64,000 nucleotides of DNA, taken from Accumulibacter sp. GTDB lineage: Bacteria; Pseudomonadota; Gammaproteobacteria; Burkholderiales; Rhodocyclaceae. Shown here piece by piece: positions 15,076 to 33,302 of this stretch. A program made the position numbers and the translations under genes. The first letter of the stretch is position 1, and the number at the start of each line of letters is the position of its first letter. The DNA lies in assembly GCA_031257115.1 (NCBI GenBank), contig JAIRPF010000044.1, positions 9,761 to 73,760 of the forward strand. The letters run 5' to 3'. A model generated the notes under the pieces. It was not told where the DNA came from. It saw only the letters and a list, made by a program, of their open reading frames with translations, and ran no database searches.

Positions 15076-15366
15076 ACGGGTTCGTTCATGTTGGCCGCCG
15101 CGCCGCGCGCGGGCCGCCGAAACCTTGCTGTTCGAGCAGGGTGGCGACATACCGGTCGGGATGATCGGGAATGGCCCGCGACGGGTGGCGCGACAACGGC
15201 CCGGCCAGCTCGCAGACCTGGTGGTCATGACGAGGCCCAGGTCGCCGGCGAGGCCGCCGTTGCGCGGGCTGGTGGAAATCACCCGGCGCGGGACGAGAAA
15301 ACGCGGGGCGGCAAACTTGTCGTTGCGATGCGGTTCGATGGCGTCAAAATGGACGTTCGGCAACAT
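15065..15366 (-). pseudogene. cbiZ: adenosylcobinamide amidohydrolase (CbiZ-like) 5' fragment, frameshifted and truncated
   Basis: GGAGG RBS, then MLPNVHFDAIEPHRNDKFAAPRFLVPRRVISTSPRNGGLAGDLGLV; shifted frame gives DHQVCELAG...HPDRYVATLL; later AANMN. Truncated at the repeat element. Confidence 0.6.
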
Positions 15367-16385: not shown

Positions 16386-16394
16386 TGGCCGTGA

Positions 16395-16508
16395 GAGCGA
16401 AGGGGGAAGGGAGAGGCGGGAAGGGGGAAGAGAGAAGGGGAAAGGGTAAAAACCGAACGGCCGGTTCTGCCCTCCGCCTCCCACTTTCCCGCCTTTTTCC
16501 TCTCTCCC
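16395..16508. repeat. purine/pyrimidine heptamer hairpin element
   Basis: GGGGAAGGGAGAGGCGGGAAG...AAAAACCG-loop-CCGGTTCTGCCC...CTTTCCCGCC. Confidence 0.7.
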
Positions 16509-16534
16509 GGCCGATATGACAAATGCCGATCTTT

Positions 16535-17072
16535 CACGTCGAAACTCCTGAAGGCTGTCATCTCAATCCACGATAACGAAAGATGGAAAGAAGATACATC
16601 GGGGAAATGCGCCACGGTTGGAGTCTTGCATGAACTACGTGGGCTTTATGAAAAATTTCCGGAGCTTGTCGGCGATTGGCGCGTGAGTGCCGATACCGTC
16701 GACAGGCGCGCGGTGGGCGAACTTGGAGAAAAACTGAAAGGCAAATCAGATAACGGTTTTCCAAGGGAAAATGATTTCGTGTCGCCGACGCCAGAGGCCA
16801 AGGCGACGGAACAGCAGTTCGAAGGCAAAGCGCCGCAGCCAAAAATACCGACCGAAAACAAGGCCGAATCGGCTAATGCGCAACTCAAGAAAACAAGCGA
16901 TGCCATGAAAAAGCCCTCACTAATCGTCGAATACGACGATCGCTCTGCGGTTGTACTTTTGCATCGCCGGCCATCGTCGTCAGGTTTGTTGTACATCCGC
17001 TATGAGGATGGAGGTGGTAAGGAAGAAGTTGACGCTGGTTCGTGCAAGATCAATCAACTGACCGAAGCCTGA
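16535..17072 (+). pseudogene. 5'-truncated fragment of an unknown protein
   Basis: The frame is open upstream of the track start (SKLLKAVISIHDNERW...) with no RBS or ATG. Composition differs from the flanking operon. Confidence 0.4.
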
Positions 17073-17203
17073 CCGGCAAGCCGAGAAAAACCCCGAAAGG
17101 GCGTATTCCGTCAATCCCATATATAATGATGGCCGAGACGGTCTGCTCCTCCACTATCCGATTGTAGAAAGCTCTGCTCATACTCGATTGCGTCCCTTTC
17201 AAA

Positions 17204-17774
17204 CTACCATTTATACTCTAAATGCAAAGAATATGTGCTATTTGGCATCAGCCTCTTATCTGAGATAAGGTTCAACTGCAAACAATAAGTTAAGAGCATA
17301 TTTTTCGTCAGACGTTCCTTTTTTAAACATTTCTTATACTGTGCGGTATCTTCAAACCATAGTGGTGTCCCCGCTTGATAAAACACCCACTGTCCATCAT
17401 CGAACAGGGTATAAACGACTCTCGTCTGCGAACCATTCTTTGTGTGTATCATATAGTTACATTGTCCATCTGAGCTTAACCTAAAATAATACCCTTCAAG
17501 GCGTAATGCACCACTGACATTGCAAAATAACGAATGCCAACCATCCTCAATATTTGCAACCATACATACACCGCTTTCCAAAGAAAAAAATCCGCAGTTA
17601 TGGAATTATGATTGTATGCAGACTTAAACTCTATATCCTCTATTTTTGTTTCTCCAAAGTATTGTGCGTGGAGTCAAAAAATCTATCCGAATAAAGATAA
17701 TCCTCGATTATTTCGAGCGATGTATCAAACCACGAGAACACAAAGTAATCTGTATTATTTAAATCAATCGTCAT
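17204..17774 (-). pseudogene. AT-rich immunity-like protein, frameshifted
   Basis: GAGAGGGG RBS + ATG at 17774 (MTIDLNNTDYFVFSWFD...), stop after 45 codons. The reading continues after shifts near A and T homopolymers into ...DGWHSL...RVVYTLFDDGQWVFYQAGTPLWFED. Confidence 0.5.
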
Positions 17775-17798
17775 GACGTCCCCTCTCTAAATTCCAAT

Positions 17799-18098
17799 TT
17801 ATCGATCTATAATCTGTTTTTCCAAAACATGAAATATCGATTCGCCGTCCGTGGATTCAATATAATATGGCTTTTCTAAATTGAAACACACTATATTGCC
17901 ATTTTGTGAAACTATTTCACCTGCAAGATACCCCCGTAATGGGAGAACTGTAGTTGCAACAATATTCTCCCAGGAAACAATGGGCACTTTCTCGCATACT
18001 TCATGTTGCCTCTCATAAGCATCTATAAAAACGCATCTTACCCAACCAGGGAAGTGGTCGTCTGTGTATTCAATAATTTCAGAGAGGAGGTACTTCAT
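17799..18098 (-). CDS. AT-rich hypothetical protein
   Basis: 99 aa MKYLLSEIIEYTDDHFPGWVRC..., GGAGG-like RBS upstream. Confidence 0.65.
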   Translation of the reverse strand: MKYLLSEIIEYTDDHFPGWVRCVFIDAYERQHEVCEKVPIVSWENIVATTVLPLRGYLAGEIVSQNGNIVCFNLEKPYYIESTDGESIFHVLEKQIIDR

Positions 18099-18177
18099 TT
18101 CATCACTCTTTCAATTTCTAATTTGTTCTCATTGCCGCCCACGCCAATTTTGCGCCTACATTTGCTCTTTCTATTCC

Positions 18178-19287
18178 TTACACGTCCACAAGCTCAATGC
18201 CATGCTCGCGCAATAGCTCGCACGTCTTCTTGTTGAATCGAGACATCACATTTGTAATCTTCCTCAAGTTGGGGAATTGTGCAAGCTCGGCTTCCTGTAT
18301 TGCCTTGACGTCGAAGCATCTGTCCTCGCCGTCCCATTGGGGGCAGACCTGAAGATATATCTCGTTGCCGCCGTCTATGTATAGTTCTTCTACAAGCGCG
18401 CCGAGGGAGGCTGGAACCGGCAAGTCCTTGAACCACGCCTTGACCTCGCGGATTGGCTCGTATCCCTCGCCGTCCACGTCAATCTCGCGCTTCGCGTAGC
18501 CTTTGGCGAAGTCGTAGACGTCAAACCTCGGCAGGAGCGCGCCCTTGTCATACATCAGCGCCTGCACGACGGCGAGCTTGAAGTTGAAGTCTGAAAACGA
18601 GAGCGGCGGCTCTTCCGTCTTCTGATAATCATGCTTGCCCGTGGACACGCGCGGCGCGCTGTAGCTGACCCACGCGAACGCAAACGGCCGCGCCTCGCCG
18701 CGCACGATGGCGGCTACCGCTGCTTCTGCGTCGTCGTGGCTCGCCCGCCACTTCCAGTCATACGGTTCCAGCTTTGCGCCAAGCGCCTCGGTCAAATGCA
18801 AGCTCACGCGCCAGTTGCCAAATTTCAGGTCGGAGATGATGCCGTAAGACTTTCCGAGCCGCTTGTCGGAGAGCTTCTCCATCACAGGCTTGCCGCCCAG
18901 CGTGAGCGTCCCTGAGAAGTCTGCGCGGGATTCCCGGACCTTGCGGTCATACTTCGGCTCCCAAGCCTCCTCATAGACCAGCCGGATGGAGATTTCCTCA
19001 ACCGCGCCGCCGTCCAAATCCTTCGTATAAGCCCACACGCCCGCGTCGTCCCAAATCAAGAGCGTGTTCTGCGCCTCGCTGTCCGCCTCCGGCAAAACGA
19101 CGCGCGGCACGCCGAACACCGCCGTGAGCGCGGGCATTGTCAGCTCCTCGACAAGCACCCCGCTGATTAGCAATCCCTTCTTGCTCACGTCGATGTCAAA
19201 AGCCTTCGCGGGCAGCGCGGACGCGCCTATCTGTGCCCCTGCGCCGGAAACCTCCGCATTCTTCTTGAACCTATCAAACAATCCCAT
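18178..19287 (-). CDS. two-domain hypothetical protein with C-terminal DUF6892-like domain (immunity-like)
   Basis: MGLFDRFKK start; C-terminal FSDFNFKLAVVQALMY...ELYIDGGNEIY...WDGED...QFPNLRK. GGAGG RBS. Confidence 0.6.
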   Translation of the reverse strand: MGLFDRFKKNAEVSGAGAQIGASALPAKAFDIDVSKKGLLISGVLVEELTMPALTAVFGVPRVVLPEADSEAQNTLLIWDDAGVWAYTKDLDGGAVEEISIRLVYEEAWEPKYDRKVRESRADFSGTLTLGGKPVMEKLSDKRLGKSYGIISDLKFGNWRVSLHLTEALGAKLEPYDWKWRASHDDAEAAVAAIVRGEARPFAFAWVSYSAPRVSTGKHDYQKTEEPPLSFSDFNFKLAVVQALMYDKGALLPRFDVYDFAKGYAKREIDVDGEGYEPIREVKAWFKDLPVPASLGALVEELYIDGGNEIYLQVCPQWDGEDRCFDVKAIQEAELAQFPNLRKITNVMSRFNKKTCELLREHGIELVDV

Positions 19288-19432
19288 CTTCGCCCTCCGT
19301 CAGTTGCCACTTCTATTACCATACGCGCTTTTCTTTCGCTTCAAGGCAAAATTACGCATCCGCCATGCGCCCTGAAGCATTTCCTCGCGGTGGTATTCAT
19401 GATTCTCTCCATGATCAAAATGTAGCAATATA

Positions 19433-19490
19433 GTGAAGAGGCAAAAACCGAGCGCCCGGTTTTGCCCTTCTCCCTTCCCGCTTTCCCCCC
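19433..19490. repeat. half copy of the heptamer hairpin element
   Basis: aaaaaccgagcgcccggttttgcccttctcccttcccgctttcccc matches the core and right arm of 16448-16500; the left arm is mostly missing. Confidence 0.65.
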
Positions 19491-19491
19491 A

Positions 19492-20238
19492 TCAATCCCT
19501 CGCCCGCCCCACCGAGGACAGCGCCAGGGCGAAAAACACCGCGCCCGCGCCGGCCAGCGCGATGAAATCCATCGGTCTCGCCGGCAGGCCGAGCGAAGCG
19601 TTGCGGATGGCGTCGGCGGCGTGGGTCAGGGGCAGCAGCCAGACCAGTGGCTGCGCCCAGCCGGGCAGGCTGTCGACCGGAAAGAGCGTACCGCCGAGAA
19701 AGGACATCGGCGTGATGACGAAGGACATCAGCAGGGACTGGTCGGCGTGCGATTTGACGATCATCGCCAGAAACACGCCGAGCGCGGCGAAGGCGAAAGC
19801 ATTGAGCGCCGCGGCGAGCAGGAAGCAGGCATCGACGCGGATGCCGATGGAAAAGACGAGCGCCACGGCAAGGATCACGGCGACTCCCAGAGCCGCGCGC
19901 GTGATCCCCGCGCAGACTTCGCCGAGCACGAAGGCGGCGTTGGGGATCGGCGCGGCCTGGAATTCTTCGAACACGTACAGGTAGAAGCGCGCGACGTTGA
20001 TTTCGGTGGCGATGCCGTAGGCTTGCGTCATGCAAGTCATCGCCGCCAGGCCGGGGATCAGGAATTCAAGATAGCCACGGCCGGGCAGCGGCGAATGCGC
20101 GCCCATCGCCGCGCCGAAAGCGACGAGGTAGAGCAGCGGCAGCACCGCCATCGACGCGACATGGCGGAAAAAACGCCGGCGCAGAAGGCGCATTTCGCGC
20201 AGGTAGACGGCGGCGAAGCCGTTCCATCCGTTCAGCAT
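19492..20238 (-). CDS. ABC-2 type exporter permease
   Basis: LEFLIPGL, EEFQAAPI, PMSFLGGTLFPVDSLP, LPLTHA. Confidence 0.9.
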   Translation of the reverse strand: MLNGWNGFAAVYLREMRLLRRRFFRHVASMAVLPLLYLVAFGAAMGAHSPLPGRGYLEFLIPGLAAMTCMTQAYGIATEINVARFYLYVFEEFQAAPIPNAAFVLGEVCAGITRAALGVAVILAVALVFSIGIRVDACFLLAAALNAFAFAALGVFLAMIVKSHADQSLLMSFVITPMSFLGGTLFPVDSLPGWAQPLVWLLPLTHAADAIRNASLGLPARPMDFIALAGAGAVFFALALSSVGRARD

Positions 20239-21071
20239 GAGGACTCCTTTCCGGTCATGCGCAGGAAGGCGTCCTCCAGGCTGACGCGGCGCAGCGTCAG
20301 CGCCTCGCGGAAGCCTTGCGCCGCCCGCCGCGCCGCCTCGTGGCCGGGAAAATAATCGGTGCGCAGACCGTCCGGCCCGGCCCGGTCGATGGCCCATTCG
20401 CCGACGCGCGCCTTCAGCGCGTCCGGCGTATCGAGCGCGCGCAGGCGGCCGTCGTCGAGGAAGGCAACGCGGTCGGCGAGGAATTCCGCCTCCTCGATGT
20501 AATGCGTGGTCAGGAAAATCGTCGCGCCGCCGGCCTGTATGGTTTTTATCAGCCCCCACAGGCGGCGGCGCACGTCGGCGTCGAGTCCGACCGTCGGCTC
20601 GTCGAGGAAGAGGATTTTCGGGCGGTGCATCAGCGCGCGGGCGATCATCAGCCGCCGCTTCATGCCGCCGGAGAGCGTGCCGGCGCGCTGCTCGCGGCGC
20701 TCGCTGAGGTCAACGTAGTCGAGCAGCGCGCGCGCCCGCTCCGCGCGGTCGACGGCCGTCATGCCGAACAGCCGGCCGTGGATGTCCAGGTTTTCGGCGA
20801 GCGAAAGATCGTTGTCGACGTTGGTGTGCTGCCCGACGAGTCCGCACTGGCGCTTGGCGCCGAGCGGATCGGCCTCGACGTCGGCGCCGCCGACGAGCGC
20901 GCGTCCGCCCGAAAGGCGGCAAAGGCCGGAAAGGATGCGAATGGTCGTCGACTTGCCCGCGCCGTTCGGTCCCAGGTAGGCGAACAGCTCGCCGGGCGCG
21001 ACGCGCAGGCTGACGCCATTGAGCGCCATGCGCTCGCCGTACTTTTTTTGCAGATTGTCGCGGAGAATCAT
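20232..21071 (-). CDS. ABC exporter ATP-binding protein (DrrA/NodI-like)
   Basis: GPNGAGKST, LSGGMKRR, FLDEPT, TTHY. Confidence 0.92.
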   Translation of the reverse strand: MILRDNLQKKYGERMALNGVSLRVAPGELFAYLGPNGAGKSTTIRILSGLCRLSGGRALVGGADVEADPLGAKRQCGLVGQHTNVDNDLSLAENLDIHGRLFGMTAVDRAERARALLDYVDLSERREQRAGTLSGGMKRRLMIARALMHRPKILFLDEPTVGLDADVRRRLWGLIKTIQAGGATIFLTTHYIEEAEFLADRVAFLDDGRLRALDTPDALKARVGEWAIDRAGPDGLRTDYFPGHEAARRAAQGFREALTLRRVSLEDAFLRMTGKESSC

Positions 21072-21077
21072 TTTTGC

Positions 21078-21166
21078 GAGAAGGGAGAAGGGAGAAGGGT
21101 GTAAACCGATCGAGGCGGTTCAATTCTTTCGGTTTTACCCTTCCCCCTTCTCCCTTCCCCCTTCCC
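21078..21166. repeat. heptamer hairpin element (GAAGGGA)n...(TCCCTTC)n
   Basis: gagaagggagaagggagaaggg-tgtaaaccg...cggttttaccc-ttcccccttctcccttccccc. It supplies the stop codon of the chlI-like gene. Confidence 0.75.
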
Positions 21167-22160
21167 TCACAATCCCCTCGAACGGCCTTCTCCTCACCCG
21201 ATGCGCGAGCGCCAGCGCCGCGGCGGCGTCGACGTCCGCGTCGCTTACCTCGTCGCGGCCGGCCCAGGCGGCAAGCGCCTTGGCGGCCTTGAGCATGACG
21301 ATGTCGCTGCGGTGGCCGTCGACGCCGAGTTTCAGCGAGCGATCGGCGATGGCGTAGAGAATCGCGTCGGACGCCTTGACGCGCGGGTACGCGGCGATCG
21401 CGGCGGCGATCGCCTGCCGCGTCTTTTCGGTTTCCCCGGCCCAGCGTTCGGCGAAGGCGGCGGGGTCGTCCTCGAAGGCGGCTCGGCGCTTGACGACTTC
21501 GACGCGCCGCGCGGGATCGGTGAGGCCCTCGACCTGCACGCACAGGCCGAAACGGTCGAGCAGCTGCGGGCGCAGTTCGCCTTCTTCGGGATTCATCGTG
21601 CCGATCAGCGTGAAGCGCGCCGGATGCGAGAGGCTGACGCCCTCGCGCTCGATGGTGTTGACGCCCATCGCCGCCGAATCGAGCAGCACGTCGACGACGT
21701 GGTCGTCGAGCAGGTTCACCTCGTCCACGTACAGGATGCCACGGTGAGCGGCGGCCAGGAGACCCGGCTCGATCACCTTGCGGCCTTCCTTGAGCGCGGT
21801 TTCGAGGTCGATCGTGCCGATCACGCGATCCTCGGTCGCCGAGACCGGCAGTTCGACGACGCGCACCTTGCGCCGGCGGACGGGAAGCCGCTCTCCGGCC
21901 AGATGGCGCGCCAGCGCGTCCGGCGCCATCGCGCGCGGATCGCGCGGGTCGCTCTGGAACGGATCACCGTCGACGACTTCGATCTCCGGCAGCAGGTCGG
22001 CCAGCGCGCGCACGGCCGTGGATTTGGCGGTGCCCTTCTCGCCGCGGATCAGCACGCCCGACAGGCCGGGGTTGATGACGTTGAGGATCAGGCTGGTCTT
22101 GAGGTCTTCCTGTCCGACGATGGCGACGAAGGGATAAGGGATGGGGCTGTTCGTGGTCAT
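21135..22160 (-). CDS. ChlI/BchI-like AAA+ chelatase subunit
   Basis: [56 protein letters not shown]. Confidence 0.9.
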
Positions 22161-22175
22161 GATGGGCTTTCTTTT

Positions 22176-22285
22176 GGTGAAAGGTGAAACGTGAAAAGTG
22201 AGAATTTCCGGCGCTGAGCGCCGCGTAGAACCTACGAAACACCGGTCGGTTTTCCACGTTTCACGTTTCACCTTTCACCTTTCAC
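22176..22285. repeat. heptamer hairpin element (GTGAAAG)n...(CTTTCAC)n
   Basis: ggtgaaaggtgaaacgtgaaaagtga ... ccacgtttcacgtttcacctttcacctttcac. It supplies the stop codon of the chlD-like gene. Confidence 0.8.
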
Positions 22286-24239
22286 AGCTTTTGGCAATCG
22301 AAACGAGGTCCTCGGCGCGGAGTTCCTCGACCTTGAAATAGGCGGCGTCGAGCGCCGTGGCGAGCTGGCGCGCGAGCGCGAGCCGCACGATGCCCGGCGC
22401 CTCGGTGTCGACGACGGCGAAGCGCGCCGTCGGAAAGCGCCGGCCGAGCGCCCCGGCGGCGCGCAGCGCCTCGTCGCGGGCAATGCCGCCGCCGAGCGCG
22501 GCGTTGGCGCGGCCGTCGGTCATCAGGATCACCAGCGGCATGACCGCCGGTTCCTTCAGCAGCGCGCGGCGCAGGACTTCCGCCGCCTCGGCCAGCCCGG
22601 CGGTCAGCGGCGTGCGCCCGCCGACCGGCAGATCGGCCAGCAGGCGGGCGGCGCGCTCGATCGAGCCGGTCGGCTCCAGCACGGTTTCGGCGCCCGCGCC
22701 CCGGAAGCACACCATCGCCACCTTGTCGCGCTTCTGGTAGGCGTCGAGCAGGAGGCTCATGATCGCCGCCTTGGTTTCGACCATGCGCCGCCGCGCGCCC
22801 ATCGAGCCGGAACCGTCGACGACGAAGAGCAGGAAATTGCCGACGCGCCGCTCGCGGATTTTCTCGCGGATGTCGTCCGGCCAGATCAACACCGCCAGGT
22901 CGCGGGTCGCGGCGAAACGGCGAAACCGCTGGTGCGGCGCGGCGGCGCGCAGCGTGGCGTCGAGCGCCAGGTCGTTGCGCTCGGTGCGGCGCGGCGTGCT
23001 CTTGACGTAGCGTCCCTGCCTGCTCGCCGAGCGCGAGCGCGAACGCCGTCCGGAGCCGGCGCGCGGGATTTGATCCTTGGTCTGTTGCGCGATCGGCCGG
23101 ACGGCGTAGGTCGCGCCGATTTCCTGCGCCTCGCCGGGAACGTCGCCGCCGCCATCGTCCTTGCCGTCCCCGGCGTCGCCGCCGTCACAGCCCTTCCCCT
23201 CGTTCGGCGGCGGCGCGGCGGCGCTTTCGCCGTTCTCCCGCGCTTCCTCGCCTTCCGGCGCTTCGCTCGGTGGCGGCTCCGCGGATTCCTCCGTTTCCCG
23301 GTCGTCTGGCTCTTCCATCGGCGGTGGTGGCGGCGGGGGCGGCATTTCCGGTTCGCCGGCGCGCATCCGGTGCAGCAGCGCCATCGGCGCGACGGCCAGG
23401 ATGTCGTCGGCGTTTACGTCGCCGCGTCCATGCCACGCGGCGTGAGCGCGCGCCGCGCGCGCGACGGCGAGGTCGGCGCGATGGCCGGCGACGTGATTGC
23501 GCAGGCAGATTTCGCCGATGAAGGCGGCGAGGTGGGCGGGAATGAGCACATCGGGCAGCCGCTCGCGCGCGGCGGCGAGACGCCGGCCGAGCGCCGCCGT
23601 CTGTTCGCGCCAAGCGGCGGCGAAGGCGTCGGGATCGCCGTCGAAGGCTTCGCGCCGCCTGAGCAGTTCGACGCGCGCGGCGGGATCGGTTTCTCCGCCG
23701 ACCGACACGGCGAGGCCGAAGCGGTCAAGCAGTTGCGGCCGCAGTTCGCCCTCCTCCGGGTTCATCGTGCCGATCAGGATGAAGCGGGCCGGATGGCGCA
23801 GGCTTTGCCCCTCGCGTTCGACGATGTTCTCGCCGCTCTCGGCGGCGTCCAGGATGCTGTCGACGAGATGGTCGTCGAGCAGGTTGACCTCGTCGATGTA
23901 CAGCACGCCGCCGTGCGCGCGCGCGAGCAATCCGGGCTGGAAGCGCGGCTCGCCGTCGCGGATCGCGCGCTCGAAGTCGATCGAACCGATGACCATGTCC
24001 TCGGTCGCGCCGAGCGGAAAATCGACGAAGGGCGGCGACGCGCCGCCGGCGGGCGGCAACAGTTCGCGGATGCCGCGCGCGGCGGTCGACTTGGCGGTGC
24101 CTTTCTCGCCGCGCACGAGCACGCCGCCGATCGCCGGATTGACGGCGTTGAGCAGCAGCGCCAGCTTCATTTCCTCCTGCGCGAGAATCGCCGGAAAGGG
24201 GTAGACGCGGCGCGGCGGGCGGGCGCCGTCCGGCGTCAC
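22275..24239 (-). CDS. ChlD/BchD-like chelatase subunit (AAA + Pro/acidic linker + VWA)
   Basis: [26 protein letters not shown] linker, VVDGSGSMG MIDAS, GGRTPL, MTDGRAN. GTG start overlaps the upstream TGA. Confidence 0.88.
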   Translation of the reverse strand: MTPDGARPPRRVYPFPAILAQEEMKLALLLNAVNPAIGGVLVRGEKGTAKSTAARGIRELLPPAGGASPPFVDFPLGATEDMVIGSIDFERAIRDGEPRFQPGLLARAHGGVLYIDEVNLLDDHLVDSILDAAESGENIVEREGQSLRHPARFILIGTMNPEEGELRPQLLDRFGLAVSVGGETDPAARVELLRRREAFDGDPDAFAAAWREQTAALGRRLAAARERLPDVLIPAHLAAFIGEICLRNHVAGHRADLAVARAARAHAAWHGRGDVNADDILAVAPMALLHRMRAGEPEMPPPPPPPPMEEPDDRETEESAEPPPSEAPEGEEARENGESAAAPPPNEGKGCDGGDAGDGKDDGGGDVPGEAQEIGATYAVRPIAQQTKDQIPRAGSGRRSRSRSASRQGRYVKSTPRRTERNDLALDATLRAAAPHQRFRRFAATRDLAVLIWPDDIREKIRERRVGNFLLFVVDGSGSMGARRRMVETKAAIMSLLLDAYQKRDKVAMVCFRGAGAETVLEPTGSIERAARLLADLPVGGRTPLTAGLAEAAEVLRRALLKEPAVMPLVILMTDGRANAALGGGIARDEALRAAGALGRRFPTARFAVVDTEAPGIVRLALARQLATALDAAYFKVEELRAEDLVSIAKSCER

Positions 24240-25423: not shown

Positions 25424-26481
25424 GACGGCCTCCCTCTTTTCAGCAGCAGACAGATGACCACCGGCGCGCCAAAAAACGCGGTGATCGCCGACAGCGGCAG
25501 TTCGACCGGCGACAGCCACATGCGGGCGATCAGATCGCACAGGCTGGCGATCAGCGCGCCGGCGAGCGCGGCGCCGGGCAGCAGCACGCGGTTGTCGGAA
25601 GTGCCCAGCGAAAGGCGCGCCATGTGCGGCACGGCCAGTCCGATGAAGGCCACCGGCCCGGCCACGGCGGTGACGAGACCGGCCAGCGAGGAGGCGAGCA
25701 GCAGGATCGACACGCGGAAGCGGCGGATGTCGACGCCCATCGAAGCGGCATAATCCTCGCCGAGCAGAAGCGCGTTGAGCGGCTTGCTCATCAGGTAAGC
25801 GCCGCCGAGGATCAGGCCGCCGAGGACGAGCATGATCCACACCTCGATCCATTTGAAGCCGGAAAAGCTGCCCATCTGCCACAGCACGAAGCCCTTGATC
25901 GCCTCCTTTTCCGCCAGCGCGGTGAGGATCGAGGTCGCCGCGCCGCACAGGTAGCCCATCATCAGCCCGATGATCAGGAGCGTCGCGCCGCCGCGCACGC
26001 GCGCGGCGATGGCCACGATCAGCGCGGTCACGCCGTAAGCGCCGAGGCACGAGGCGATGGTGTTGAGGTACGGCGCGTAACCCGAAAAACCCATGCCGAT
26101 GCTGGTCAGCATGACCAGCGAGACCATCACCGTCGAACCGGAGGAGATGCCGAGAATGAACGGCCCGACGATCGGGTTGCGGAAATAGACTTGCAGCAAC
26201 AGTCCGGATACGGCGAGAAAAGCGCCGCCCAGCGCCGCCGCGATGGTTCTCGGCAGGCGGATGTTCCAGACGATGTAGGCGACGTCGCTTTTTCCGGCGG
26301 GATCGAGCAGCGCGCCGAGCAGCTGGTCGACGCTGTACGAGATCGATCCGATGCGCAGGTTGAGCGCCATCATGACGGCGGTCAGCGCCAGCAGCGCGGC
26401 GAAAACGCCGGCGCGGCGGCTGACCGGGACGATCGGCGCGGCGCGGGCGGGAAGGGTTCGGGTTTGTGCGATGGGTGGCAT
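25420..26481 (-). CDS. FecCD/BtuC family permease
   Basis: IRLPRT, FRNPIVGPFILGISSG, EDYAASMGVD, GPVAFIGLAVPH. Start approximate. Confidence 0.9.
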   Translation of the reverse strand: MPPIAQTRTLPARAAPIVPVSRRAGVFAALLALTAVMMALNLRIGSISYSVDQLLGALLDPAGKSDVAYIVWNIRLPRTIAAALGGAFLAVSGLLLQVYFRNPIVGPFILGISSGSTVMVSLVMLTSIGMGFSGYAPYLNTIASCLGAYGVTALIVAIAARVRGGATLLIIGLMMGYLCGAATSILTALAEKEAIKGFVLWQMGSFSGFKWIEVWIMLVLGGLILGGAYLMSKPLNALLLGEDYAASMGVDIRRFRVSILLLASSLAGLVTAVAGPVAFIGLAVPHMARLSLGTSDNRVLLPGAALAGALIASLCDLIARMWLSPVELPLSAITAFFGAPVVICLLLKRGRPS

Positions 26482-26582
26482 GGGAGGTTGGAGGCGGGAA
26501 TCGGGGAAGGGGAGAAGGGCGTGAAAGGTGAAGGGTGAAAAGTGAAACGTGAAAAGTGGAAGGTGGAAGGTGAAAATCGGAC
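26482..26582. repeat. tandem heptamer array (GTGAAAA/GTGGAAG), single arm
   Basis: gtgaaaggtgaagggtgaaaagtgaaacgtgaaaagtggaaggtggaaggtgaaaa between the SBP and permease genes. Confidence 0.8.
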
Positions 26583-26585
26583 GAT

Positions 26586-27698
26586 TCATCCCCCCGGATC
26601 GACGTCCGGCAGTTCGACGAAGAACGACATCCGGTGTCCGGGATAAGCCCGTGGATGCAAAATGGCCGAAATCTCGGTCAGGATTTCGTCGAGCCGGTCG
26701 GCCGATTGCGCGTAATGCGGTTTCGGCGCATAGACGCGGCCTTCCGGGCCGAGCGGGCGAATTCCGGCGATCAGCGGATTGGTGCGCGCCAGGGCCGCTT
26801 TCGACGAAGCGCCGCGTCTCGCCGTGCGGTAGGTGAAGTAGATGTCGGCTTCCTTGCCGCTGTGGATGAATCGCTCGGTGGAAATCTCGATGCACGAGGC
26901 GCCATAAACGTCGTCGAACAGGTAGTCGCTCTGCGCCAGTCCGATCAGCTCGGCGACCCAGGCGTTGCCGGGTTCGACGAGCACGCGCTTCTCGTAGATG
27001 TCGCCCCACATGGCCCTGGGTTTCGGCAGCCCCCGCGTGCGGTCGCGGATGTCTTGCAGCGCCGCGGCGACTTTCTTGAAGTACGCCTTGCCCTCGTTCT
27101 CGCGGCCGAAGAACGGCGCGATGAATTCGACGAAACGCATGTGCGTGTTGAGGCAGGTGGCGATCGGCGTCGTGGTGACCACGACGGGAATGCCCAGGCT
27201 GTCCATCATCGGAATGATCGACGGATCCCAGGTCATCACCACGTCGGGGCGCTGTGTCTTGACGCGCTCGAAGTCGATGGCCGTGCTCGGGCCGACGTAG
27301 GCGATGCGCCCTTCCTCGAAACCCCGGCGCACGTCGTCGCGCGTCCATTTCTCCTTTGGCTCGGTGACGCCGACCAGCGTCTCCGGGACGCCGAGCGCGG
27401 CCAGGATGCCGACCTCGAAGGCGCGGTAGGCGATCACCCGCCGCGCCGGCACCTCGATGACGTCGGTCGGCCCGAAGCCTTCGGGCGCTTTCGCGCCGCG
27501 CGGCACCAGCGCCAGCCGGCGTCCCGCGCCGTCGCGCACCTCGATGTGACCACTCTTCCTGCTCACCGAAAATTCGCCGATGTTCATGAACGACTGTTTC
27601 GGCTTCTGCCCGTCGTTCTGGCAGGCGGCCAGCGCGCCGAGGAGCGTGGTCAAAACGGTCAGACGGACAAGGCATTTGAGCCATGCGGGATTTTTCAT
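26586..27698 (-). CDS. ABC substrate-binding lipoprotein (BtuF/TroA-like)
   Basis: Start MKNPAW at 27698; lipobox LAAC; IDFERVKTQRPDVV; ADIYFTY. Confidence 0.82.
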   Translation of the reverse strand: MKNPAWLKCLVRLTVLTTLLGALAACQNDGQKPKQSFMNIGEFSVSRKSGHIEVRDGAGRRLALVPRGAKAPEGFGPTDVIEVPARRVIAYRAFEVGILAALGVPETLVGVTEPKEKWTRDDVRRGFEEGRIAYVGPSTAIDFERVKTQRPDVVMTWDPSIIPMMDSLGIPVVVTTTPIATCLNTHMRFVEFIAPFFGRENEGKAYFKKVAAALQDIRDRTRGLPKPRAMWGDIYEKRVLVEPGNAWVAELIGLAQSDYLFDDVYGASCIEISTERFIHSGKEADIYFTYRTARRGASSKAALARTNPLIAGIRPLGPEGRVYAPKPHYAQSADRLDEILTEISAILHPRAYPGHRMSFFVELPDVDPGG

Positions 27699-28489
27699 GC
27701 CACTTCCTTTTTCCTGAAATTGCGTCCGTGGAAATACAGGGCGAGTCCGAGCACGAACATCGCCATGCCCAGCCGATAGACGACAGCCGACGGGTCGCGC
27801 CGCACGATGAGCCGGATGTAGTTGTGGCCCGCGCCGCCGCCCGATCTGCGCGGCTGGAAATCGTTCAGGTGGATGCCGACGCCGCCGGCGCGGATCGGCT
27901 CGTTGAAATTGAGCACGGCGGAATATTCCTTGCCGCCGTCGCCGATCGTCATCTGCGCGTTCGGCCGGATGACGTAGCCATCGAAGGCGTCGACACGGTC
28001 TCCGCGAAAAACCTCCGCCCGGAATCCGTGGAACGCCACCGTCACCCCCGCGCCAGGCAGGGAGAAACGCTCGCCCGGACGCAGCGCGCGGCCGGTGTCG
28101 CTGGTGGAAAACAGGTAGCTGCACAGGTAGCCGGCGAGGATGACCAGCACCGCGTAGTGCATCAGGTGCGGCGCGAGGCGGAAGGGCAGCTCGCGCCGGG
28201 CGTGCCCGCGCGCCAGGATGTACAGCACGCGGTCGGTGGTGCAGACGAAAGTGTTCACCGCCAGGCACCCGAGCAGCGCGAGCATGGCGAAAAACCACGC
28301 CGCGTGGCGCGGATTGGCCGCGCCGTAGGTGTCGATCCATTCGAGCAGGCCGGTACGGCTCATCGGCTCGAAAATTTCGAGGTTCTCGCGCAGCGACAGA
28401 TAGCCCAGCGCAAGATCGGCGGCGAGCAGGAAGCACAGCGCGACGGTCAGCCGGATGCTGCGCAGCGAATGCCACGCGCGGAGCATCAT
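27695..28489 (-). CDS. short ResB/CcsB-like membrane protein
   Basis: SIRLTVALCFLL, LAVNTFVCT, HLMHYAVLVILAGYL, FNEPIRAGG. 264 aa, much shorter than canonical ResB. Confidence 0.6.
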   Translation of the reverse strand: MMLRAWHSLRSIRLTVALCFLLAADLALGYLSLRENLEIFEPMSRTGLLEWIDTYGAANPRHAAWFFAMLALLGCLAVNTFVCTTDRVLYILARGHARRELPFRLAPHLMHYAVLVILAGYLCSYLFSTSDTGRALRPGERFSLPGAGVTVAFHGFRAEVFRGDRVDAFDGYVIRPNAQMTIGDGGKEYSAVLNFNEPIRAGGVGIHLNDFQPRRSGGGAGHNYIRLIVRRDPSAVVYRLGMAMFVLGLALYFHGRNFRKKEVA

Positions 28490-29274
28490 CGCGCGCCTCC
28501 CGCGACGGCCAGCGGATCGACGAACGGCCCCATGTCCGGGCCGCCGTTCAGCGCGAGAATCAAGACGGCGCCGAGAACGCTCATCGCGGCGCGCGTCCGG
28601 CGGCTCGATAGCCCACCGAGGTACAGGTGGATGACGCCGACGTAAAACAGCCAGGTGCCGATGGCCGTCAGCGTGGAGGCGTCTTCCCAGACCATCGGCA
28701 CGCCCCAGCCGGTGTAGGACCACATCTCCCCGGAAAACAGCGACAGCGTCCAGAAGCCGAAGCCCCAGACCATCCAGCGGAAAACGCGCGGCATGGCGTC
28801 GTGTCCGCGCAGCGCGGCGCAGCCCCAGGCGCCGGCGACGAACAGGCAGGCGCGGGCAAGCGAGCCGAACAGCAGCGCGCCGTGCGCATACGGCGAGGTC
28901 GTCTTGATCATCGGCAGGTAGAAATCCTTGGGAAAGAAGACGCCGGCGAGCGTCGCGGCCAGACCGAAGGCGATCAGCCAGCGCCGCGCGACGGGCGCGC
29001 CTCCGGGATCATTTTGGGGATCGCTTCCGCGCAGCGACAGCGCGCCGAGAACGGCCAGCAGGGGTGGATGGAGAACGCTGCCGGCGAACATCGGCGTCAT
29101 CGGCCAGCTCGCCCGGTAACGCATACCGGCATAAACGACGCCGGCGGCTGCGGCGAGTAGCCACGGCGCGGCGGCAGCGCGATTCGCGCGTCCCGGCAGC
29201 GACGCGGCGATCAACGCGAAAAGCAACAGCAGCGCTTCGATTGCGAGCACCAGACGGCTCGTTTCCATGCCCAT
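28486..29274 (-). CDS. CcsA/ResC-like heme-handling membrane protein
   Basis: Tryptophan-rich GEMWSYTGWGVPMVWED (variant of WGxxWxWD), with His in AHG and IHLY. Confidence 0.7.
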   Translation of the reverse strand: MGMETSRLVLAIEALLLLFALIAASLPGRANRAAAAPWLLAAAAGVVYAGMRYRASWPMTPMFAGSVLHPPLLAVLGALSLRGSDPQNDPGGAPVARRWLIAFGLAATLAGVFFPKDFYLPMIKTTSPYAHGALLFGSLARACLFVAGAWGCAALRGHDAMPRVFRWMVWGFGFWTLSLFSGEMWSYTGWGVPMVWEDASTLTAIGTWLFYVGVIHLYLGGLSSRRTRAAMSVLGAVLILALNGGPDMGPFVDPLAVAGGAR

Positions 29275-29429
29275 CCCCAGTCACGGTCAAACGGCGCGGG
29301 AAATCACCGGAGGGAACGGCGTCGGACGGTCGAGGCCACGGGGGGCGGAACGAAGGGCACATCGGACGCTGCCCTTGCCACGCCGTGGCATCAGACGGTC
29401 TTCACCCACCCCGGGGAATACCCATCCAC

Positions 29430-29635
29430 GTTTCCAGGCCGGTCTTCTGGCTCGCCGTCGTCCTTCTCCGGCACCTTCCCGCGCGAAACGTCGCGCAGTG
29501 GCGCTTGGCCGGAGTCGTCAGGCTTACAGCAGCGGGGGCTGCGCCGGAATGTCCTGTCTCGCGTATCGAAGAGGAGTCACCGGCTTCCCGTTTCACCCTC
29601 CCCGCGGCCGCGGGGACGGGCACCTGAAACAGGGC
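29430..29635 (-). ncRNA. cobalamin riboswitch
   Basis: Minus strand: AGGTGC...GAAACGGGAAGCCGGTG...CCGGCGCAGCCCCCGCTGCTGTAA...GCCACTG...GGGAAGG...GAGCCAGAAGACCGGCC (B12 box). Confidence 0.9.
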
Positions 29636-29780
29636 GGATTCTATACCCGCCGGTCGGCGAGGAACAAGGGGGTTGCGGGTTTCCGCTGTTCAGGGATCGG
29701 AATTTCCGACCGTATGGATTTGCGACGCTCCACGCCGGCGCTTTTGCCCTGGACGGCGCAATGCGTCTTGCCCCGGCGCG

Positions 29781-30101
29781 TCACAAACCCAGGACGGCGC
29801 GGAGCTTTTCCGAAACGCGCGCCATGTCTTCATCCGATAATCTGCCGATCCGTTTGTCGAGGTCGTTTTTGTCGAACGAGAATATTTTGTCCGTCATGAC
29901 ATAGCTCGCTGTTTTGAGCTTGTTGCCGGCATCGGGATCGATCTTGATGCGGGCGATATCGTTTTCGTTTTCAAAGCTCGTGAACAGACAAGTGATGGTC
30001 GAACCATAAGCATCGTAGCCATCCGCCTGGATCACGAGCACCGGCCGCACCTTTGTTGCGTACAGTTCCGCGCGCGCGATCCATATCTCACCACGCATCA
30101 T
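29781..30101 (-). CDS. PemK/MazF family toxin
   Basis: MRGEIWIA...KVRPVLVIQ...SYVMTDKIFSFDK...IGRL. Confidence 0.85.
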   Translation of the reverse strand: MMRGEIWIARAELYATKVRPVLVIQADGYDAYGSTITCLFTSFENENDIARIKIDPDAGNKLKTASYVMTDKIFSFDKNDLDKRIGRLSDEDMARVSEKLRAVLGL

Positions 30102-30318
30102 TGAGTGCCTTTCTGGATAAACGGCGTGTCATTTGCATCGCGTCCGTTTCGTCATCCGTTTCGGCTTTCAAATCAAAGGGGATACCTCTCGTGGCGACGA
30201 CTTTTTTCAGATAGATGTTGATGCCCGCGCTGGTTGTCAGCCCGATCCGCGAAAAGATCGCATCGGCCCGCTTTTTCAGTTCATCATCGATTTTTATGTT
30301 CAGTGATACGGAGGGCAT
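30088..30318 (-). CDS. RelB/DinJ family antitoxin
   Basis: SLNIKIDDELKKRADAIFSRIGLTTSAGINIYLKKVVATRGIPF; overlaps the toxin start. Confidence 0.85.
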   Translation of the reverse strand: MPSVSLNIKIDDELKKRADAIFSRIGLTTSAGINIYLKKVVATRGIPFDLKAETDDETDAMQMTRRLSRKALNDAW

Positions 30319-30380
30319 CTATATAGACTCCATATGTTTTATTCACGATATACGTATTCTTTCTATCTTATCAGTTCTGG

Positions 30381-31778
30381 TCATCGAATCAAGCTCGTCC
30401 GCCACTCCAGTTTCTCATGCAGCGAAACCACCGAGCCGATGATGATCAGCGCGGGCGGCTCGATGGAGGCTTCTTCCATCAGGCGGGGCAGGTTGCCCAG
30501 GGTGCCGACGACCGTCCGCTGCCTGTCGGTGGTGGCGCGTTCGACGATCGCGGCGGGAGTCTCCGGCGCGCGGCCGTGGGCGATCAACTGCCGGCAGATG
30601 GTCTCGGCCTGCTGCACGCCCATGTAGATGACGAGCGTCTCCGTATCGCTGGTCAGGCGCGGCCAGTCGAGATCGACCTGTCCGTCGCGGCGGTGGCCGG
30701 TGACGAAGGTCACGGATTGCGCGTGATCGCGGTGCGTCAGCGGGATGCCCGCGTAGCACGACGCGCCGGCCGCCGCGGTGATCCCCGGCACGACCTGGAA
30801 CGGAATGCCCGCTTCGGCGAGTTCCTCGATTTCCTCGCCGCCGCGCCCGAAGATGAACGGGTCGCCGCCTTTCAGCCGCAGCACGGCCTTGCCAGCCTGG
30901 GCCAGTTCGATCATCAGGCGGTTGATTTTCTGCTGCGGCAAGGGATGCTTGTCGGCCTTTTTCCCGACGTAGATGCGTTCCGCCTCGCGCCGGGCCAGCG
31001 CGACGATTTCCGGCGAGACGAGGTTGTCGTACAGGACGGCGTCGGCCTGCTGCATCAGCCGCAACGCGCGGAAGGTCAGCAAATCCGGGTTGCCCGGCCC
31101 GGCCCCGACCAGATAGACCGCTCCCCGGATCGAGGACTCCGGCTCGCGGGACGCGAGTTCGGAACGCAATATTTCCTCGGCTCCGGCGACATCCCCCGCC
31201 AGCGCCCGCTCGGCGGCCGGCCCTTCCAGGACGCGCTGCCAGAAACGGCGGCGCGCCGTGGGATCGTTCGGGAAGCGCCGCCCGACGGCGCCGCGCAGGC
31301 GTCCGGCCAGATCGGCCAGACCGCCGTAGCCGTGCGGCAGCCAGGCCTCGATCCGGGCGCGCAGCAGGCGGGCGAGCATCGGCGTCCGGCCGGCCGTGGA
31401 TACGGCGAGCATCAGCGGCGAGCGGTCGATGATCGACGGGACGATGAAACGGCTTTGCTCCCTGGCGTCGGCGACGTTGACCAAGATGTTCGCCGCCTCG
31501 CAGGCGGAAAATACCGCCTCGTTGACCCGCCGGTCGCCGGTGGCGGCGATGACCAGTCGCCGCCCTCGTTCGTCGCCCGGCCGGTAGGCGCGCCGCAGGG
31601 CGCTCAGGCGGCCCGCCTCGCTCCATTCGGCCAGTGTCGGATGCAGTTCCTCGGCGATCACCGTGAGCGCCGCGCCCGCGTCGAGCAGCAATCCCGCCTT
31701 GCGCGCGGCGACCTCGCCGCCGCCGACGATCAGGCACGGCTGCCCGGCCAGTTTCAAAAACAGGGGAAAATAATCCAT
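30381..31778 (-). CDS. cysG: siroheme synthase (CysG B + uroporphyrinogen-III methyltransferase)
   Basis: MDYFPLF, VGGGEVAARK, VGAGPGNPDLLT, RLKGGDPFIFGRGGEE. Confidence 0.95.
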   Translation of the reverse strand: MDYFPLFLKLAGQPCLIVGGGEVAARKAGLLLDAGAALTVIAEELHPTLAEWSEAGRLSALRRAYRPGDERGRRLVIAATGDRRVNEAVFSACEAANILVNVADAREQSRFIVPSIIDRSPLMLAVSTAGRTPMLARLLRARIEAWLPHGYGGLADLAGRLRGAVGRRFPNDPTARRRFWQRVLEGPAAERALAGDVAGAEEILRSELASREPESSIRGAVYLVGAGPGNPDLLTFRALRLMQQADAVLYDNLVSPEIVALARREAERIYVGKKADKHPLPQQKINRLMIELAQAGKAVLRLKGGDPFIFGRGGEEIEELAEAGIPFQVVPGITAAAGASCYAGIPLTHRDHAQSVTFVTGHRRDGQVDLDWPRLTSDTETLVIYMGVQQAETICRQLIAHGRAPETPAAIVERATTDRQRTVVGTLGNLPRLMEEASIEPPALIIIGSVVSLHEKLEWRTSLIR

Positions 31779-31792
31779 GCGTCATCCATTTT

Positions 31793-32482
31793 TCAGGCCA
31801 GTTCCAATTCCAGATACCAATACTCGTCCGAGGGCCGCGTCTTGCGCGGGACGTGTTTCTGGTAGCGTTTCCCCTCGCGCGCGGTGATCGGGCCGGAAAA
31901 CTCGCGGCAATCGAAAACGAAGGAATGATATTCGCCGTTCTCGCCGCAGGCGTCGACGCCGGCCGCTTCCAGATCGACGAGCGTTCGCGCGTCCAGAACC
32001 CGCCCAAGAAAACCCTCGCCCAGGCGTTCGTTGCAGGAGACGATTTTCGCTTTCAGCCCGGACGCGATCATGTCCTCGACGAGCCTGCGGCGGTTGACTT
32101 CCCAGAGCGGGAACAGCGGCTTCAAGGCCACGTCGGGACGGGCGCAGACCCGTTCCACCCAGTCGCGGTGCGTTTGCACGTCGATGTCGCCGAACACCGC
32201 CGCGTCGGCGTCAAATTCGTCGCGCGCGCGGATCAACTGCTCGACGAAGGCGCTCTCGTAGTCGCTCCACGACGGGCTGCTGCGCAGCAACGGCACGTTC
32301 AGGCGCTCGGCCTGCGCCCGCAGCAGGCTGGCGTCCAGACCGTGCGAGCGCGAATGCTCGCCGGCCGGCTCCAGCATGGACAACAGCGCGACGAGCCGAT
32401 GCCCCTGCGCGCGGGCCAGTCGCATGGCATGGCAGCTATCCTTGCCGCCGCTCCACGAGGTAACGAATTTATGTTTTGCCAT
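31793..32482 (-). CDS. DUF71/COG2102 (Dph6/MJ0570-like) PP-loop ATPase
   Basis: SWSGGKDS, VFGDID, PLW, DACGENGEYHSFV. Confidence 0.85.
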   Translation of the reverse strand: MAKHKFVTSWSGGKDSCHAMRLARAQGHRLVALLSMLEPAGEHSRSHGLDASLLRAQAERLNVPLLRSSPSWSDYESAFVEQLIRARDEFDADAAVFGDIDVQTHRDWVERVCARPDVALKPLFPLWEVNRRRLVEDMIASGLKAKIVSCNERLGEGFLGRVLDARTLVDLEAAGVDACGENGEYHSFVFDCREFSGPITAREGKRYQKHVPRKTRPSDEYWYLELELA

Positions 32483-32595
32483 ATGATCATCCTTTCAATC
32501 GGAGATGTAAAAAACGACCCGGAAAAAGCGATCGGCCGCAACGAACACGATGAACTCCTCCCGCTTTTCGCCGTGGTTGATTGCTTTTTCCAAAA

Positions 32596-33195
32596 TCAAA
32601 ACTCTATGCCCGCCTGCGCCTTGATGCCCTGATCCCGGTACGGATGCTTGACCGATTTCATTTCGGTGACCAGGTCGGCGGCGTCGATCAGCGCCCGCGG
32701 CGCGTGCCGTCCGGTCACGATAACGTGCGTCTTTTCGCTGCGTTTTTCCAGACCCCGCAAGACCTCGTCGATATCCAGATACCGATATTTCAGGACGACG
32801 TTCAGTTCGTCCAGCACCACCACGGCATGGCGCCCGTCGGCGAGCAGGCGTTCGGCCCGCCGCCAGCCGTCGTTCGCCGCCATTTCGTTTTCGGCGCGGT
32901 TTTCGGCGGTCCAAGTGTAGCCCTTGCCGGCGACATGGAAATCGCACAGTTCGGCGGCCTGAAAGAAATCCCGCTCGGCGCTCGGCAGCGCGCCCTTGAT
33001 GAATTGGACGATCCCGGCGCGTTTGCCGTGCCCCAGGCAGCGCAGCACCATGCCCCAGGCGGCGGTGCTTTTGCCCTTGCCGTCGCCGGTATGCACGATC
33101 AGCAAGCCTTTCTCGCCCTGGGCGCGGGCCTGTTTCTTGGCGAAACCGGCCCTGTGCCGCTCGCGCGTTTCCCGGTCATCGAAAGTGTTTGTCAT
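32596..33195 (-). CDS. cobO: cob(I)yrinic acid a,c-diamide adenosyltransferase (CobO/BtuR)
   Basis: TGDGKGKSTAAWG, QFIKG, LDELN, TGRHA, ADLVTEM, GIEF. Confidence 0.93.
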   Translation of the reverse strand: MTNTFDDRETRERHRAGFAKKQARAQGEKGLLIVHTGDGKGKSTAAWGMVLRCLGHGKRAGIVQFIKGALPSAERDFFQAAELCDFHVAGKGYTWTAENRAENEMAANDGWRRAERLLADGRHAVVVLDELNVVLKYRYLDIDEVLRGLEKRSEKTHVIVTGRHAPRALIDAADLVTEMKSVKHPYRDQGIKAQAGIEF

Positions 33196-33207
33196 GAGTT
33201 TGAATCC

Positions 33208-33302
33208 GTGAAAAATGAAATGTGAAAAGTGAAAAATGGAAATTTGATGAACGAAAAACCGTTTCTCCGATGGGTTTTCTCACGTTTCACTTTTCACTCT
33301 TC
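33208..33302. repeat. heptamer hairpin element
   Basis: gtgaaaaatgaaatgtgaaaagtgaaaa...gaaaaaccg...gggttttctcacgtttcacttttcac; overlaps the cbiJ stop. Confidence 0.75.

Follow-up and report, generated by a model that had tools for sequence, protein, structure and literature searches.

Inverted arrays of tandem heptanucleotides are common in bacteria, and to our knowledge nobody knows how they originate or what role they play. In the intervening sequences (IVSs) that carry the four-helix-bundle ORF S23p (PF05635) in the 23S rRNA of Coxiella burnetii and Leptospira, terminal inverted arrays form a long stem with the purine arm first and an A-rich/ACCG inner junction; the Coxiella heptamer is GACAGAT, and RNase III cuts that IVS out (PMC4990558). 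In Xanthomonas (GGGAATC) and Nostoc (GGGGA(C/T)T), tandem heptamers with a conserved core, variable positions and mostly ~4 units lie between genes, and in Xanthomonas 70–75 occur as convergent (inverted) pairs, with no known function (Rehm et al. 2015, PMC4692102). The direct TAACTGA repeats of marine Beggiatoaceae put a stop into all three frames, run over the stop codon of the gene upstream and finish shortly ahead of the next start codon; their phylogenetic distribution is patchy, and no mechanism is known for them (MacGregor 2015, PMC4679880). Tandem heptanucleotide arrays are also in print for Geobacter (PMC2700814), and, according to the literature, heptamers rank first in over-representation among the long simple repeats of bacteria (PMC4692102, PMC4679880). 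Repetitive extragenic palindromes and bacterial interspersed mosaic elements (REP/BIME, REPIN) and MITEs (miniature inverted-repeat transposable elements; Correia, ERIC, RUP) are short, high-copy, lineage-specific intergenic palindromes that are transcribed in operons, sometimes supply stop codons and are known RNase substrates or barriers. Here we analyze a 64,000-nt stretch of an Accumulibacter sp. genome (GCA_031257115.1, contig JAIRPF010000044.1, positions 9,761 to 73,760; hereafter the window), in which six heptamer elements occupy gene junctions of a cobalamin-riboswitch region. These elements are true copies of a dispersed repeat family with ~45 sites in the genome, recently gained or lost in short intergenic gaps.

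The six sites at which a first-pass annotation of the window had noticed tandem heptamers (16395, 19433, 21078, 22176, 26482, and 33208) do carry them. With up to two mismatches allowed, (GTGAAAN)x3 has 16 matches in the window, compared with 0.00 in 100 shuffles, and (GAAGGGN)x3 has 8, compared with 0.01 in shuffles; Tandem Repeats Finder delimits period-7 arrays at 16399-16446, 21078-21099/21138-21166, 22176-22201/22255-22285, 26521-26575, and 33208-33235/33280-33302. The AAAACCG...CGGTTTT core that had been described as frequent is present in elements 1 and 2 (Table 1), with looser versions in the remaining loops. The mirrored inverted arm, which had been attributed to the elements in general, exists at 21078, 22176, and 33208; it is degenerate at 16395, the site at 19433 has one arm, and 26482 has no inverted partner at all. 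Folding of the transcribed strand gives the same division, with long stems at these three of the six sites (21078, free energy −57.3 kcal/mol, z −6.9; 22176, −56.8, z −7.6; 33208, −32.1, z −3.9), all three having a stem of at least 20 bp made of terminal inverted tandem heptamers, compared with a weak signal at 16395 (z −1.5) and no fold at 26482 (z −0.2).

Counted over the whole assembly (3.36 Mb in 212 contigs, 63% GC, marker completeness 100%), heptamer arrays occur at 62 loci, 45 of which are of the GTGAAAN or GAAGGGN type. The arrays of these two types number 64, distributed over the two strands as 22 + 22 for GTGAAAN and 10 + 10 for GAAGGGN. Their parts come in an invariant order: the purine-rich array leads through an inner junction, GTGG(A/G)AAAACCG or GAAGGGTAAAACCG, to the loop, and CGGTT(T/C) then precedes the pyrimidine array. 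The purine array consists of 3–8 heptamers, GTGAAAN or GAAGGGN and rarely GACAGAG or GGGAATC (few of the latter are found here, at C74 and at 26495 in the window). A pairing partner, with which a stem of 20 bp or longer is formed, was found for 41 of the 64 arrays, and it lies downstream of every purine array and upstream of every pyrimidine array, with zero reversals; the other 23 fall under the partner cut-off, and ~15 of them are true single arms. The purine-first order also holds in a second species, G359, for 12 of the 12 paired copies fetched. The loops, 35–120 nt in length, are built from a few directional modules. Module A (TTTGATGAACGAAAAACCGTCTCTCCGATCGGTT) is found at no fewer than 10 dispersed loci, at 90–97% identity in six and 80–87% in the others; it turns up in either orientation and combined with either type of arm. 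Module B accompanies GAAGGG arms, and module C contains a GGCGCTNAGCGCC hairpin. The copies in G359 combine the same arms with their own module-C-like loop. Nested and tandem copies occur (C114, C137, C120), as do 4–5 hybrids whose arms do not pair (C83, C50, C74, C41/C185) and which nevertheless keep the purine-core-pyrimidine order; a GACAGAN-type arm is present in the hybrids C83, C50, and C41/C185, and G359 also has one hybrid (L209).

Every copy is found between protein genes or at the end of one. The flanking genes are co-directional at 34 of the 39 loci for which both neighbors were called, compared with 75% of junctions genome-wide. More telling than co-directionality is how tightly the copies fill the spacer from stop to start. 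The upstream stop codon falls inside the purine arm (~10 cases) or at most 15 nt before it, and the downstream start codon follows 7–21 nt beyond the pyrimidine arm, an interval that usually contains a Shine-Dalgarno sequence; single pyrimidine arms likewise lie 7–13 nt ahead of starts, and single purine arms on or just past stops. The six elements of the window, described in the first-pass annotation as lying between co-transcribed genes, are all located between minus-strand genes of the riboswitch region, and the three stop codons said to be overlapped or supplied by an element are indeed so placed. The TAA of chlI (21135-21137) lies at the arm/core junction of element 3, and the arm therefore encodes the C-terminal tail of ChlI; the TGA of chlD (22275-22277) lies within an arm of element 4, with the chlI start (22158-22160) 16 nt past the opposite arm; and the TGA of cbiJ (33294-33296) belongs to the outermost unit of element 6, with the cobO start at 33193-33195. 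Since GTGAAAN contains TGA and its 7-nt period is not divisible by 3, a run of three units stops every reading frame, an argument also made for the TAACTGA repeats of the Beggiatoaceae (PMC4679880). The complementary pyrimidine arm has no stop codons. Because TGA recurs with the 7-nt period, we read stop-codon donation as a by-product of the heptamer sequence. For annotation, it matters that the elements alter the C-termini of ChlI, ChlD, and CbiJ, and that they can sit inside open frames, as in the radical SAM gene.

The family has expanded recently in this lineage. Within a collection that holds 54 species of the genus, (GTGAAAN)x3 has 76 matches in this genome and 0–8 in 30 relatives, and (GTGAAAN)x4 has 32 matches here, with a single further positive among 300 genomes sampled from the phylum; G359 shows a separate burst of copies. 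Junctions that are filled here are empty in relatives. The chlD/chlI junction is a GTGA start-stop overlap in the metagenome contig L121, whose ChlI is 88% identical, and an 8-nt spacer in G018, and the chlI/ABC junction is an ATGA overlap in G018. Relative to G006 (77–87% nucleotide identity), seven further filled sites correspond to short spacers, for example TGA-TCTC-ATG at the C212 site, TAA-AGGAGTGCGTTC-ATG (13 nt) at the C190 site, and 8 nt at the C2 site. The reverse is also seen: G006 has copies where this genome has just 17–45 nt, and at the ABC-ATPase/chlD junction, where the two genes overlap by 13 nt in this genome, a 190-nt composite is present in G344. In G010, two junctions of the same operon carry other arm types. 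With filled and empty junctions in both directions among congeners, copies must have been gained and lost quickly.

Two of these junctions merit separate description. The composite of G344 (C304:1800-2260, L206) has two arrays that are both of purine type in the mRNA sense, GACAGAG x6 and GGAAATG-type x6, surrounding a GGGCGCGAAGCGCCC hairpin and a GTCATTCC repeat, and is a possible exception to the purine-then-pyrimidine order. The empty chlD/chlI junction of G018 (L002 2519-2560) reads AGTGAATGGTAGAC AGTGAATGGTTTCA; here a GTGAATG-like word is repeated in a 14-nt duplication that spans the chlD stop, and this may be a nascent or decayed array.

The first-pass annotation had argued for selection on structure from arms that differ between copies while staying complementary within each copy. 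We compared each purine arm with its own pyrimidine arm and with the pyrimidine arms of all other copies by permutation. In neither type did own arms match better. For GTGAAAN the sequence score was 4.5 for own arms and 6.9 for those of other copies (p = 0.94, n = 11), and for GAAGGGN 11.7 and 11.6 (p = 0.48). RNA duplex energies were −36.2 versus −40.3 kcal/mol for GTGAAAN (p = 0.996) and −52.4 versus −52.8 kcal/mol for GAAGGGN (p = 0.51), with a cross-family mean of −19.9 kcal/mol. Arm complementarity thus belongs to the word family and not to the individual copy: the observation survives at the level of the heptamer family and fails copy by copy, and since own arms pair no better than foreign ones, the argument for selection on structure falls. 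The non-pairing hybrids and single-arm copies point the same way. For similar findings elsewhere there is a caution here, in that two arms that are complementary because they are arrays of the same word are not evidence of a selected RNA structure.

The elements have the same build as the rRNA IVSs, which are found in the genus itself: in the congeners G004 and G013, genes of the four-helix-bundle family PF05635 lie inside 23S rRNA (Rfam large subunit, LSU), flanked on both sides by heptamer arrays (GACAGAN/NTCTGTC) in which the purine arm comes first and the inner junction, AAACCG/GGGTTTT, is similar. These GACAGAN arms match the GACAGAT of Coxiella, and the hybrids described above carry that arm type. 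In G014, a PF05635 gene with TTAAGTG-type arms lies between two sugar-nucleotide genes. The link to four-helix-bundle genes suggested in the first-pass annotation therefore holds for the genus and not for this assembly, in which neither a PF05635 match nor an LSU rRNA was found; the latter leaves room for an rRNA-borne copy. Nor is there an ORF in the loops (35–120 nt). The elements further differ from the IVSs in lying between protein genes and not in helix 25 or 45 of 23S rRNA, in being present in ~45 copies, and in their main heptamers, GTGAAAN and GAAGGGN. The genome encodes RNase III (rnc), and cleavage of the elements by it would be an analogy with the IVSs.

With the arrays of Xanthomonas and Nostoc, the elements share at least two tandem heptamers, a conserved core, a mostly intergenic position, and many convergent pairs. 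As a pattern of sequence, GGG recurs every 7 nt in GAAGGGN arrays, a spacing like that of quadruplex formers, and the genome also has a few GGGAATC units; however, the dominant unit, GTGAAAN, has no GGG and is incapable of forming a G-quadruplex. The tight stop-to-start placement within operons is also different, and so are the shared non-repeat loop modules and common core, neither of which is met in the passages of the Xanthomonas and Nostoc report drawn on here (PMC4692102). The TAACTGA arrays resemble the elements in their placement on stops and before starts, but they are nearly all direct, without an inverted partner or core hairpin (PMC4679880). From REP/BIME sequences and MITEs, with which they share the properties listed at the outset, the elements differ in that no intact REP-associated tyrosine transposase (RAYT) was found, no target-site duplication was seen, and the arms are variable tandem arrays, with no terminal inverted repeats of fixed sequence.

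Taken together, these observations lead us to regard the elements, with some confidence, as REP- or IVS-like palindromic repeats that probably spread by copy-and-paste into stop-to-start spacers, change by slippage and by recombination through the core, and are largely tolerated as passengers. The suggestion of a non-autonomous mobile element in the first-pass annotation is thereby upheld in part: the lineage burst, the dispersed loops at 90–97% identity in both orientations, and the filled and empty junctions agree with it, whereas movement itself, target duplication, and a mobilizing enzyme were not found. Several points weigh against our interpretation. No target-site duplication or sharp conserved terminus appears in 7–8 filled/empty comparisons, in which clean insertion boundaries are blurred because the nearest relatives are only 77–88% identical. 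No mobilizing enzyme was found either, Y1/RAYT being the only family for which an intact transposase was sought; the sole Y1-transposase match is a 54-residue remnant (C166:8193-8354) with no arrays close by. A parent insertion sequence with matching terminal inverted repeats was not identified in a non-exhaustive search. Finally, one and the same 16-nt core, AAAAACCGGGCGCTCGG, follows the ABC2 stop in G010, with a GACAGAN-type array, and in this genome, within element 2, although the flanking protein is only 55% identical, which could mean constraint on the core instead of neutral passenger status.

This shared core is one of the observations that would be expected if the elements were selected RNA elements setting operon expression, either through RNase III cleavage or 3′-end protection between cistrons, and hence segmental mRNA stability, or through translational coupling, imposed by the stem beside the start codon, to an upstream gene that ends in the 5′ arm. 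Such a role, which we consider unlikely but worth keeping in mind, would also suit the very stable stems exactly between stop codon and ribosome-binding site, the Shine-Dalgarno sequence usually kept just past the 3′ arm, and the presence of an RNase III gene in a genome whose elements have rRNA counterparts that are RNase III substrates (PMC4990558). However, the arms show no copy-specific compensation, the single arms and hybrids lack the stem, and the same junctions in congeners with the same genes are overlaps or spacers of 4–18 nt, so the elements are dispensable there. No intrinsic-terminator-like pattern (GC-rich stem plus U tract) matches the minus, transcribed strand at any of the six window elements. 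Alternatively, the arrays could be home-grown, arising in place by slippage from heptamer-like gene ends such as (A/G)TGA overlaps and acquiring the inverted arm by template switching, with nothing passed from one locus to another. In favor of this, empty junctions resemble the resident arm: GTGTGAATA in L121 resembles the start of the GTGAAAN array here, AAGGGTGAAGA in G006 resembles a GAAGGG-type copy, and AGTGAATGG in G018 is duplicated at a 14-nt period; unit number and variable positions differ in every copy, and the general over-representation of heptamers noted above also fits. We take the resemblance of native gene ends to the resident arm as an unproven hint. Since non-repetitive, directional loop modules of 35–120 nt are common to dispersed copies in both orientations, local slippage is insufficient, and only a handful of heptamer families is in use although gene ends are diverse; an origin in place is thus improbable.

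The core is palindromic, with an AAAACCG half-site on each side of a short spacer, and could also be read as a crossover site through which DNA is integrated or shuffled, with the elements marking cassette boundaries. The 2.9-kb low-GC stretch that separates elements 1 and 2 is what such a crossover would give: both boundary elements are of GAAGGG type, with near-identical cores (18/21) between good outer and poor inner arms, and the stretch is absent from G344, which has a 309-nt spacer, and from L121, where the radical SAM gene comes 9 nt after chlI. Hybrids always run in the order purine arm, core, pyrimidine arm, and many contigs end at elements. Against this, the core spacer ranges from 3 to >40 nt, in contrast to true recombinase sites; no element is present at the empty site of G344; deletion between tandem or nested copies (C137, C114, C120) explains the hybrids equally well; and no recombinase gene was noticed among the insert reading frames examined, where none was searched for. 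We therefore give this explanation very little credence. A related candidate, insertion of the 2.9-kb stretch into a pre-existing element, found no support, the empty site in G344 being an AT-rich spacer that lacks an element. More speculatively, the rRNA hairpins with heptamer arms and a four-helix-bundle gene and the gene-less copies might form one mobile system without a classical transposase, in which the core would be a site of strand exchange or hairpin-directed insertion and the arrays would be platforms that bind, for instance, the pentameric four-helix-bundle protein of an rRNA-borne master copy missing from this assembly; capture of DNA such as the 2.9-kb stretch would then be possible. 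We consider this improbable.

For the copy-and-paste spread that we favor, a plausible sequence of events can be proposed. The family would have expanded in this species, copies being added to or lost from the gap that runs from a stop to the next ribosome-binding site, a spacer of a few nucleotides or a 4-nt overlap, by a route that leaves no target duplication and is perhaps aided by similarity between the native gene end and the heptamer. Arrays would then lengthen, shorten, and drift through replication slippage, and neighboring or nested copies would recombine or delete through the shared core, yielding hybrids and single arms. An upstream gene running into an arm would terminate there. 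Copies would be transcribed within operon mRNAs, where full copies are predicted to form 25–35-bp stems resembling those cut by RNase III in the 23S rRNA IVSs of the genus; by analogy, the transcripts may be RNase III substrates. Most copies are probably tolerated passengers and not purpose-built regulators.

As a case of inverted heptamer arrays, this genome is useful for its recent burst, for its two arm families and three loop modules, which are freely recombined, for the strict purine-then-pyrimidine order, for clear filled and empty junctions among congeners, and for rRNA IVSs of the same build in the genus. Possibly new are the freedom with which arms and loops combine, the fixed order of the arms, and the series of filled and empty junctions along one operon.

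Table 1. Coordinates of the six elements and of the low-GC stretch in the window.
Feature	Position	Type	Parts	Setting
Element 1	16399-16508	GAAGGGN type, decayed	purine arm 16399-16446; core TAAAAACCGAACGGCCGGTTCTG 16447-16469; degenerate pyrimidine arm 16470-16508	between 2.9-kb low-GC stretch and radical SAM gene
Element 2	19433-19490	truncated: short core hairpin and one arm	purine stub 19433-19441; core CAAAAACCGAGCGCCCGGTTTTG 19442-19464; CCCTTC-type arm 19465-19490	
Element 3	21078-21166	GAAGGGN type, full hairpin	arm 21078-21099; loop 21100-21137; arm 21138-21166	chlI/ABC ATPase junction
Element 4	22176-22285	GTGAAAN type, full hairpin	arm 22176-22204; loop module C 22205-22250; arm 22251-22285	chlD/chlI junction
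Element 5	26495-26576	single-arm composite array, no inverted partner	GGGAATC/GAAGGG-type units ~26495-26520; GTGAAAN x8 26521-26576	
Element 6	33208-33304	GTGAAAN type, hairpin with loop module A	arm 33208-33241; loop 33242-33277; arm 33278-33304	cbiJ/cobO junction
2.9-kb low-GC stretch	16509-19432	50% GC		splits riboswitch operon; bounded by elements 1 and 2

Genes in the window were called from Pfam scans and an open reading frame (ORF) caller trained on ORFs with more GC at third than at first codon positions (GC3 > GC1). The region runs on the minus strand in the order cbiG, a methylase gene, cbiJ, element 6, cobO and further genes, a riboswitch (29420-29642), ccsA-like, resB-like, and binding-protein genes, element 5, FecCD, ABC ATPase, and chlD, element 4, chlI, element 3, an ABC ATPase and an ABC-2 permease, element 2, the low-GC stretch, element 1, and the radical SAM gene. 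Rfam finds two cobalamin riboswitches in the window and no family match at any element. Element 2 ends 1 nt short of the ABC-2 permease stop (19492-19494), and element 5, which appears in the mRNA in its pyrimidine version, occupies a 104-nt spacer from the binding-protein stop (26586-26588) to the FecCD start (26479-26481). The low-GC stretch contains a KorB_C-like ORF (16626-17072) and a DUF6892/DUF7738 gene (18178-19287). A 924-nt Logan contig retrieved by exact-protein look-up ends within element 6, and a ChlI-based search of genome contigs returned distant phyla only, without useful junctions, because chlI moves horizontally.

The radical SAM ORF (15344-16615, minus strand) remains open across the entire segment 16395-16510. 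Its conserved N-terminus (PPIAI...VVW) starts at the pyrimidine-arm edge of element 1; this genome has lost the start codon that G344 and L121 use, and the putative true start is ambiguous.

A reverse transcriptase was considered as a mobilizing enzyme and rejected: the sole one in the genome lies in an unrelated retron-like defense cluster (C106:1721-3752), which comprises genes for the reverse transcriptase (294 aa) and a phosphoribosyltransferase-like protein and one more small gene. That the AAACCG...CGGTT core might simply be the ordinary terminator of this genome was likewise dismissed, the frequent short AAACCGGNNCCGGTTT palindromes being another repeat family. That second intergenic repeat, of ~10 copies, reads CCTTCGCGCCGCCCTGAAGGGCGGGGTTTCAAACCGGAGCCGGTTTTACGATGAA with the perfect AAACCGGNNCCGGTTT palindrome (C164:9091-9160, C166:4967-5040, C131:34625-34700). 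A longer repeat, also with ~10 copies, has a GCGAAAN heptamer array at its start and contains GTCATTCCCGCGAAAGCGGGAATCCAG, which resembles the dRS3/NIME repeat of Neisseria (C39:13022, C77:6944, C149:26122, C54:272).

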